IMG/VR virus record: IMGVR_UViG_3300005544_000020
Coordinates: 172,091-236,090 of that record
Length of the DNA: 64,000 bases
Direction: 5' to 3' (one strand)
Source of the DNA: a virus
Taxonomy: Duplodnaviria > Caudoviricetes
This document shows positions 1,393 to 20,118 of the stretch, in pieces. Below the pieces are notes generated by a model, which saw only the letters and a program-made list of their open reading frames with translations, was not told the origin of the DNA and did no database searches. Numbering within the stretch: position 1 is the stretch's first letter; each line of letters opens with the position of its first letter. The translations under genes were made by a program, and so were the position numbers.

Positions 1393-1466
1393 TGGTGCTC
1401 CCGACGGGATTCGAACCCGTATGCGGACTTTTAGAGAGTCCTAGCCCGCCTTTGGCCCACGGGAGC
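1393..1466 (-). tRNA. tRNA with CUA anticodon (amber suppressor), CCA end encoded
   Basis: 74-nt cloverleaf: acceptor GCTCCCG/CGGGAGC, D-stem GGCC/GGCT with GG in loop, anticodon stem GGACT/AGTCC with loop CT-CTA-AA, 4-nt variable loop, T-arm ACGGG-TTCGAAT-CCCGT, A73, CCA. Confidence 0.92.
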
Positions 1467-19241: not shown

Positions 19242-19547
19242 CTATCCTTCGATCACATAGAGCATCGGAGGGCCTTGGAGTCCCAGCTTCAAACTGGCGG
19301 CGAGCTCCTTGAGAGCCTGCTGCTCCTGGGCATCCGGGATCTGGATGCCGGCGTATTCCTGGCCGTTTCGGATATCAACCGTTCCCAGATGTCGTCCGAC
19401 GAAGGAGGTCTTGCCGTTCATCGTCATCGTGAGCGTGATGCCGGCATTCAGGGCATCCTCGCCCTTCTCCATCATCATGCTGTTCCGGATCTCGTCGGAG
19501 ACCTGCCAGCCGTGAACCAGGTACAGATTCTTCGGGATCGGCATCAT
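19242..19547 (-). CDS. hypothetical protein
   Basis: ATG at 19547 overlaps the TGA of the upstream read-through gene. Confidence 0.65.
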   Translation of the reverse strand: MMPIPKNLYLVHGWQVSDEIRNSMMMEKGEDALNAGITLTMTMNGKTSFVGRHLGTVDIRNGQEYAGIQIPDAQEQQALKELAASLKLGLQGPPMLYVIEG

Positions 19548-19819
19548 AGGCACACGTATTCCTGATCTGGATCTCCACCTGGCCGGCGACGGCCTGATTT
19601 AGGTTCGCGCATCCAGCCCTTAGGCTCTTTTTCCTTCGTAGGATCCCACCGATAGAGTTCGCGCACGGCGACCTCAGGATCGTCGTATCACCAGCCTTGG
19701 TCGTAGGTCATGAGATCGCCCGGCCCCAGGCAGAGCCGCGCCCGGCCGAACGTCAGGGGCACGACCGCGAGAGCCCGACCATCAGGCAGCATCCGTACCG
19801 CCAGGAATTCGTCGCTCAT
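19544..19819 (-). CDS. 91-codon phage-type protein with in-frame TGA at 19688-19690 (selenocysteine candidate or nonsense pseudogene)
   Basis: MSDEFLAVRMLPDGR...YDQGW*YDDPEVAVRELYRWDPTKEKEPKGWMREPKSGRRRPGGDPDQEYVCL; ATGA coupling at both outer ends. Confidence 0.7.
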
Positions 19820-20118
19820 AGAAGCTGTCCCTGGGCTACTTCGAAGTGCTTTGGCCTGCTCCAGCAGCCGCATTCGGAACCATGGCTCTGCAGGCAGGCC
19901 TCGAACTCCTTCTTCTGGACTGAATCCTGGGCCTTCTTCGCCACCTCGAGGTATTCGGCGCTCGGGCTCTTGTCGACTTCCTGCCCGTTCCGGTAATGGC
20001 GCCAGATGAGCCTTCGAAGATCTGCAGGTACCATCGTCCAGTGCTTGTAGCACATGAAAAGGTCCGGCCTTACCGGAATACCGCAGTATCGGGCATGACA
20101 GAAGTGTGGAGTATCCAT
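19816..20118 (-). CDS. hypothetical Zn-binding phage protein
   Basis: HFCHARYC..FMCYKHW motif. Confidence 0.75.
   Translation of the reverse strand: MDTPHFCHARYCGIPVRPDLFMCYKHWTMVPADLRRLIWRHYRNGQEVDKSPSAEYLEVAKKAQDSVQKKEFEACLQSHGSECGCWSRPKHFEVAQGQLL

Follow-up and report, generated by a model that had tools for sequence, protein, structure and literature searches.

Selenocysteine (Sec) insertion is usually regarded as something that cells do, along with a few viruses of animals, the selenoproteins of eukaryotic viruses being the glutathione peroxidase homologs encoded by molluscum contagiosum virus and fowlpox virus. In the RNA phage Qbeta, a UGA codon is subject to programmed read-through (coat/A1). 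No phage-encoded selenoprotein was found described in the papers and preprints that we searched, in which the viral cases came from eukaryotic viruses. In Escherichia coli, the selenocysteine insertion sequence (SECIS) is a 17-nt stem-loop located 11 nt after the UGA, in which the bulged U17 and the loop residues G23 and U24 are fixed and the remainder is variable if paired, and SelB contacts U17 and G23 (PMC8659212). To call a new selenoprotein, four features are looked for: a TGA within the frame, pairing of Sec with Cys between homologs whose flanks are conserved, further homologs with TGA, and a bacterial SECIS (PMC12013277). In some bacteria, anticodon variants of tRNA-Sec naturally read UAG and UGC/UGU as Sec (PMC8124441, citing Mukai et al. 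2016). Here, we analysed a 64,000-nt stretch of DNA (the window), positions 172,091 to 236,090 of the virus record IMGVR_UViG_3300005544_000020 (Duplodnaviria; Caudoviricetes), in which a 91-codon phage gene carries an in-frame TGA at codon 44. We favour the reading that phages carry here a Sec-UGA/SECIS gene of the bacterial type, and on comparative sequence evidence we assign it a probability of roughly 0.85.

In the mechanism that we propose, the UGA at codon 44 of the 91-residue phage protein would be read as selenocysteine by the SelB and tRNA-Sec of the host. The directing signal would be a bacterial-type SECIS hairpin within the coding sequence, 16–36 nt after the UGA, with G and U of the apical loop at +25/+26. 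The phage would supply the cis signals only, namely the UGA and the hairpin, while selA, selB, selC and selD would be provided by the host. The window gene belongs to a large family of small phage proteins whose members would have either Cys or a recoded stop at this site.

A TGA codon alternates with cysteine in a phage protein family

The candidate selenoprotein gene occupies positions 19819..19544 on the minus strand and comprises 91 codons plus a terminal TGA. It was assigned to phrog_24748, whose function is not assigned and for which there is no Pfam model; the phrog_24748 profile matches residues 4–83 of 91 (E 5.6e-5) and so spans the internal stop. Reading from the window, the start ATG lies at 19819..19817 and the terminal TGA at 19546..19544. 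The in-frame TGA, the proposed selenocysteine codon, lies at 19690..19688 on the minus strand, between W43 and Y45 in the predicted strand 41–45, and is separated from the terminal TGA by 47 sense codons. The read-through product is MSDEF...YDQGW-[TGA]-YDDPEVAV...SGRRRPGGDPDQEYVCL. The terminal TGA is an ordinary stop, at which the hairpin is absent.

Back-translated searches of IMG/VR and JGI metagenomes yielded 121 further loci, bringing the total to 130. The codon at the site was called by aligning in-frame translations to the family hidden Markov model, and 126 of the 130 loci cover the site, the other four being fragments outside it. TGA was found at 76 of these 126 loci, TGC at 19, TGT at 16 and TAG at 2, and the remaining 13 carry CAT (3), GAC (3), ATC (2), GAT, CTC, GTA, GTG or TCC (1 each). 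Cys therefore accounts for 35 of the 48 non-stop loci, while none of the 126 loci has TGG, CGA, GGA, TCA or TTA, each of which is one step from TGA. The TGA forms comprise 70 distinct homologous sequences with TGA at the same codon, from many samples, well beyond what chance would produce. A protein search had returned three apparently truncated homologs that stop exactly at W43, and their DNA reads TGG TGA TAY GAY followed by conserved in-frame sequence; the full-length relatives from the same search carry Cys at the site.

A profile search over 1.84 billion representatives gave 1841 clusters (50% identity) at E ≤ 1e-3, 969 of them at E ≤ 1e-10. Among the best 150 of the 1841 clusters, all full-length and pairwise never closer than 50% identity, Cys occupies the site in 120 representatives (WCY in 89, YCY in 13 and WCF in 12) and W in 3. 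Position 30, the only other Cys in the N-terminal half of the window protein, is Cys in 31 of these 150 and is not conserved.

The closest relatives of the window gene include both forms. An independent contig, L076, with a protein identity of 93%, also has TGA, and the nearest Cys relative is the L004–L008 group, which is 82–84% identical. In a maximum-likelihood tree, at least seven changes between stop and Cys were required, with weak support on 91 columns; L008, a Cys form, groups with the closest TGA relatives of the window, the clade having a support of 87% in the Shimodaira–Hasegawa-like approximate likelihood ratio test (SH-aLRT). The nearest cultured members of the family, from Caulobacter and Brevundimonas jumbo phages, carry Cys at the site. 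Two diverged members have TAG there (L080:2593-2633 and L021:3112-3152), each with an intact 7-bp stem and a GGUC loop.

These results bear on a preliminary description of the locus made from the window sequence. It had reported an in-frame TGA in an intact, translationally coupled gene, which agrees with the TGA at codon 44, the open frame beyond it and the ATGA overlaps on both sides. The family motif that it gave, with Cys at the position of the TGA, was recovered in the phrog_24748 match across the stop and in the Cys of the 120 representatives. Its suggestion that other relatives be searched for TGA was borne out by the 76 loci above, and the alternative that it left standing, a recent TGC>TGA nonsense mutation, is rejected by the presence of TGA at one codon in about 70 diverged sequences.

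The reading frame continues under selection beyond the stop codon

The downstream frame remains open for 44–52 more codons in 73 of the 74 distinct stop-bearing rows of the alignment (72 TGA and 2 TAG). This frame is under purifying selection: for the window and its closest relatives, the ratio of nonsynonymous to synonymous substitution rates (dN/dS) over the 45 downstream codons was 0.05–0.22 where it could be estimated, with dS around or above 1, and the upstream half behaved alike. Every invariant column of the 88-row alignment (P66, W69, G76, R77, R79, G82 and D83) falls after the stop. Counted from the site to W58, the spacing is the same in every one of the 74 stop rows; it differs in 2 of the 25 Cys rows and in 6 of the 12 rows with another residue. 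No in-frame start codon follows the stop (TAC GAC ...), and the terminal stop of the family gene is itself TGA in 48 of the 74 stop-form rows.

Two loci depart from this organization. At L105:1590-1598, the TGA is directly followed by TAA (TGATAAGAC); this is the only stop-form row with a closed downstream frame and is probably a broken copy. At L123:640-960, the N-terminal half of the family protein is missing and the C-terminal half is preceded by an unrelated, zinc-ribbon-like open reading frame (ORF); a GGUC hairpin persists at the usual distance from the expected position of the stop, and the copy looks like a rearranged remnant.

A covarying hairpin follows the stop codon

When the 78 nt from the stop onwards were folded for each TGA row, a recurring hairpin was revealed, centred about 25 nt after the U of the UGA and with a loop that is mostly GGUC. 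In the window, this SECIS-like hairpin lies at 19675..19655 on the minus strand, +16..+36 from the U of the UGA, and reads GAG-G-UCGC [CGUGC] GCGA-A-CUC. Its pairs are G16-C36, A17-U35 and G18-C34, then, beyond a G19/A33 mismatch, U20-A32, C21-G31, G22-C30 and C23-G29, closing a 5-nt loop of C24, G25, U26, G27 and C28. Requiring at least four contiguous pairs around +25/+26 together with G and U at those positions, we found the hairpin in 61 of 70 TGA rows and in both TAG rows, versus 1 of 25 Cys rows; this single Cys row is the L004–L008 group. G and U at +25/+26 alone were present in 63 of 70 TGA rows versus 2 of 25 Cys rows.

The 72 stop rows align without gaps. The named 8-bp structure was 72.9% paired over these rows, compared with 60.8 ± 1.2 in shuffles, and its covariation score was 0.364, compared with 0.177 in shuffles, a value that none of 500 shuffles reached and that exceeded every slid register. 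The hairpins fall into two registers. Class A (49 rows) closes a loop of 4 nt at +24..+27, with the sequence GGUC in 43 of 49, and class B (12 rows, including the window) has a 5-nt loop at +24..+28 (CGUGC, CGUGA, GGUCA and others); 11 rows lie outside both classes. In class A, the pair +21:+30, both members of which are third-codon positions, is paired in all 49 rows and draws on all four Watson–Crick types (UA 12, GC 12, AU 12 and CG 9), GU 3 and UG 1 making up the rest; pairing at +18:+33 is kept in 46 of the 49. In the Cys rows, the same pairs form in 10 and 9 of 25, respectively, which is chance level. The class B pair +20:+32 also covaries (UA 5, GC 5, AU 2). RNAalifold found no structure over all 72 stop rows together, because the two registers are mixed there; split by register, it returned a consensus of 6 bp with a 4-nt loop and another of 5 bp with a 5-nt loop.

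The nearest Cys form (TGT, L004:2194-2234, with near-identical stretches in L005–L008) keeps a hairpin of class B (UCGC CGUGA GCGA). It is explained either by a recent Sec-to-Cys switch that left a fossil SECIS behind or, more speculatively, by a UGU that is read as Sec.

The preliminary description had drawn a larger hairpin from GATCC/GGATC and CGCCG/CGGTG. Those segments do exist, but they do not form the conserved hairpin, the outer stem being broken in the close relative L002; the conserved element is the smaller hairpin inside it, at 19675..19655. Its proposal of a viral selenoprotein has been strengthened by the conserved TGA, the Cys alternative, the selected downstream frame and the covarying hairpin in TGA forms.

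Predicted fold of the protein

AlphaFold2, run with the family alignment, predicted one compact domain across both halves of the protein, with a predicted local distance difference test (pLDDT) score of 94.2 and a predicted template modelling (pTM) score of 0.85. The model consists of four strands, a helix and a structured C-terminal part, with residue 44 within strand 41–45. A C-terminal extension made by a leaky stop of the Qbeta type was considered and does not fit this model, in which the stop falls inside strand 41–45 of a single predicted domain.

Neither Pfam nor NCBIfam matched the protein. Foldseek found nothing in the PDB at E ≤ 0.001, the best hits being weak likenesses to OspA and AcrF1, and the AlphaFold database (AFDB) clusters held uncharacterised homologs only, plus a weak KTSC-domain row; the fold therefore offers no functional lead. 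The single conserved Cys/Sec, its aromatic flanks, its location on a beta-strand and the lack of a conserved partner Cys suggest a lone reactive residue, acting as nucleophile or ligand, rather than a CxxC-type redox pair. The strongly conserved basic loop SGRRRPGGD next to the Cys/Sec could bind phosphate or nucleic acid.

tRNA genes and the source of the selenocysteine machinery

Three tRNAs are encoded by the phage, two Ala(CGC) and one suppressor with a CUA anticodon. The latter is a 74-nt amber suppressor at window positions 1393-1466 on the minus strand, in a phage where TAG otherwise serves as a stop codon; it reads UAG and cannot read the UGA of codon 44. In ten other phage records with TGA forms, no tRNA-Sec was found above the Rfam cut-off, and in 4 of these 10 records ARAGORN detected no tRNA with a UCA anticodon on the loci around sub-threshold tRNA-Sec matches.

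As to the host, no close cultured relative of the phage was found, and the Caulobacter control genome had no SelA above the cut-off. The only stop-form copy in a bacterial bin is L131, on a 3.4-kb contig from a Caldilineaceae metagenome-assembled genome (MAG), which has TGA and a GGUC hairpin. The same MAG holds SelB and two tRNA-Sec(UCA) genes, which weakly supports Sec-competent hosts, given that a short contig can be mis-binned. Among 401 genomes of the phylum of G002 screened for prophage copies, the family occurred in G002 alone.

Several other tRNA genes were recorded. The 63-kb record of L021 (77% complete) has tRNA-Trp(CCA) only. In the record that holds the TGA-form L026, L160:1500-1585 on the minus strand is an 86-nt tRNA with a long, class II-like variable arm and a GCA (Cys) anticodon, scoring 49 bits with the tRNA model and 38.5 bits with the tRNA-Sec model, below the cut-off of the latter; it is an unusual tRNA for a phage whose family gene would require UGA to be decoded. 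L153:1501-1591 is a 91-nt tRNA-like gene whose D-arm region seems to contain a duplicated insertion and whose anticodon loop has CAU; ARAGORN did not name it. L151 and L154 belong to a TGA-form phage (record G004, 191 kb, with terminal repeats) that has about 30 tRNA genes within about 4 kb and no UCA or CUA anticodon among them.

Weighing of the alternative explanations

Several points weigh against selenocysteine insertion at codon 44. SelB binding of the hairpin, incorporation of selenium and Sec competence of the host are all three elements that we infer. The phage record was searched for tRNA-Sec, SelA, SelB and SelD and contains none of them, and the Sec machinery must therefore come from the host. 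The window hairpin has the 5-nt loop, which is the rarer form, and when folded as a single sequence its energy does not stand out (z −0.53, in a GC-rich context); an Rfam search gave no relevant family match, although Rfam covers bacterial SECIS elements poorly. A bulged U in the 5' strand of the stem is not evident in most family hairpins, the class A stems being continuous over 6–8 bp, and the window stem has a G/A mismatch instead. The loop G and U lie at +25/+26, 2 nt further from the UGA than the +23/+24 of E. coli fdhF. The TAG that replaces TGA in two relatives with the same hairpin would need a host tRNA-Sec(CUA). Finally, the stem is built mostly from Ala codons (GCN GCG GUC GCN GCN), so that its complementarity comes partly free with the peptide. 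The pairs between two third-codon positions are therefore the decisive ones, and covariation at these wobble positions is the part of the complementarity that the peptide cannot supply.

The only serious rival to Sec insertion is a Sec-independent programmed read-through, in which the UGA would be leaky and the hairpin would stimulate its decoding by a tRNA for Trp, Cys or Arg, near-cognate or suppressor, giving a 43-residue product and, as in the UGA read-through of Qbeta, a minor full-length one. Such read-through would account for the same hairpin beside either TGA or TAG no less simply than a changed tRNA-Sec anticodon does, an amber-suppressor tRNA is at hand in the phage, and the Sec machinery of this phage's host is presumed. 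The residues found at the site point the other way: Cys occupies it in 35 of 48 non-stop loci and 120 of 150 representatives, with TGG at no locus and W in 3 of 150, unlike what decoding by tRNA-Trp would lead one to expect. The suppressor of the phage reads UAG and not UGA, and the inspected parts of the TGA-form records have no tRNA with a UCA anticodon. An invariant loop GU on a freely covarying stem is the pattern of SelB recognition, and we know of no hairpin-stimulated read-through system in bacteria. A stand-alone protein of 43 residues is also implausible if, as modelled, the stop lies in the middle of a strand of a single-domain fold. Taken together, we regard Sec-independent read-through as improbable.

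If the TGA were instead a true stop between two separate products, the hairpin could have a role in termination, pausing or mRNA stability, and the part beyond it could arise by re-initiation, which is in use locally in so far as the genes are chained by ATGA overlaps. We hold this to be very unlikely, given that no in-frame start follows the stop, that the Cys relatives encode one continuous protein, that AlphaFold2 folds the two halves as one domain, and that the fixed spacing and the loop GU are left unexplained. That the gene is broken, whether by sequencing error or by a nonsense mutation that recently turned TGC/TGT into TGA, has in its favour that TGA is one base from TGT and TGC and that the nearest Cys relative (L004–L008) is 82–84% identical. 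This view conflicts with the 70 distinct TGA sequences from many samples, with dS above 1 and downstream dN/dS around 0.1, and with the TGA in the independent contig L076. An alternative code with TGA as sense fares no better: TGA is a normal stop in this phage, ending 172 of 309 (56%) open frames of at least 200 codons, which rules out genome-wide reassignment, and it also ends this same gene. We consider a broken gene or an alternative code almost certainly wrong.

The gene and its neighbourhood

The window belongs to a virus record of 236,090 bp with a G+C content of 57.7% and an estimated completeness of 90%. The candidate gene is joined to its neighbours by ATGA overlaps on both sides, all on the minus strand. 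At 19819..19816, its ATG overlaps the stop of the upstream gene, which also ends in TGA; at 19547..19544, its terminal TGA overlaps an in-frame ATG of a downstream 103-aa ORF. The upstream gene (window 19816-20118, minus strand) encodes a 100-aa Cys/His-rich protein (HFCHARYCG...CYKHW) assigned to phrog_18063 (E 1e-25), which adjoins the family gene in the closest relatives only.

The neighbourhood in the window is of an early, DNA-metabolism type, with a HerA-like DUF87 ATPase, DUF5131, an RNase T-like exonuclease, DUF1508 and an AAA ATPase. It is common only to the closest relatives (synteny at 7 of 125 loci), and the neighbours at distant family loci are unrelated and have no common theme.

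When the whole phage was scanned crudely for further TGA-plus-hairpin sites, 33 matches were obtained, of which the three most SECIS-like were inspected, and none of the three had the support of a read-through frame. Longer ORFs cover the frames in which two of them lie; the third closes an open frame of 143 codons and is followed by no more than 31 open codons.

Implications

If selenocysteine is indeed inserted, this would be a large phage family most of whose sampled members need the Sec machinery of their hosts, and the UGA form would restrict the possible hosts. Genes of the family would be systematically mis-annotated as truncated or split. The phages would exploit, and possibly sense, a costly recoding system of the host. 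The alignment would also provide an unusually clean natural data set on SECIS constraint, with 70 diverged UGA/hairpin pairs, matched Cys controls and the UAG variants as an extra test case.

A further, speculative step, which we think rather unlikely, is that the UGA/SECIS pair acts as a host-state gate on the full-length protein and the coupled downstream genes, and that the family tracks the recoding systems of its hosts. The idea arises because the genes are ATGA-chained and Sec insertion competes with termination. In such a gate, the yield would follow the SelB/tRNA-Sec activity and selenium supply of the host, and such tracking would be seen in the UGA of most members, in the UAG that two lineages combine with the same hairpin, and in Cys wherever the hosts are without Sec.

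Comparison with known recoding systems

Selenocysteine insertion at codon 44 can be set against four kinds of system in which an internal stop is decoded. Like Qbeta read-through and the phage genes gated by suppressor tRNAs, the window gene would rely on decoding an internal stop, but here the stop alternates with Cys, lies in mid-domain and is accompanied by a SelB-type hairpin. With the glutathione peroxidases of eukaryotic viruses, it would have in common a virus-encoded UGA-Sec protein relying on Sec insertion by the host. Those are captured host genes with a eukaryotic SECIS and SBP2, whereas the present gene belongs to a phage-specific family with a bacterial-type hairpin inside the ORF.

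The two TAG members resemble UAG-Sec recoding, as L080 and L021 combine TAG with an intact 7-bp GGUC hairpin, as one would expect of phages in hosts where UAG stands for Sec. The hosts of both possibly do read it so.

The closest likeness is to the SelB/SECIS genes of the E. coli fdhF type. Differences are found in the bulged U, which is not evident in most phage members, a feature that was defined on E. coli fdhF, whereas the host SelB may differ; in the carrier phage genomes, which are without Sec machinery; and in the single Cys/Sec, which has no conserved partner. In both, an in-frame UGA stands at a Cys-equivalent site and is directly followed by a hairpin inside the coding sequence, and in both a variable yet paired stem carries an invariant G and U in the apical loop at a fixed spacing from the UGA. 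The phage family displays all four features expected of a new selenoprotein (PMC12013277).

The phage hairpins would also fit two other descriptions of bacterial elements. The Moorella thermoacetica SECIS of the SelB co-crystal reportedly has a GGUC-containing loop and lacks the bulge, and the bSECISearch model places the loop 16–37 nt from the UGA with a G in its first two positions.

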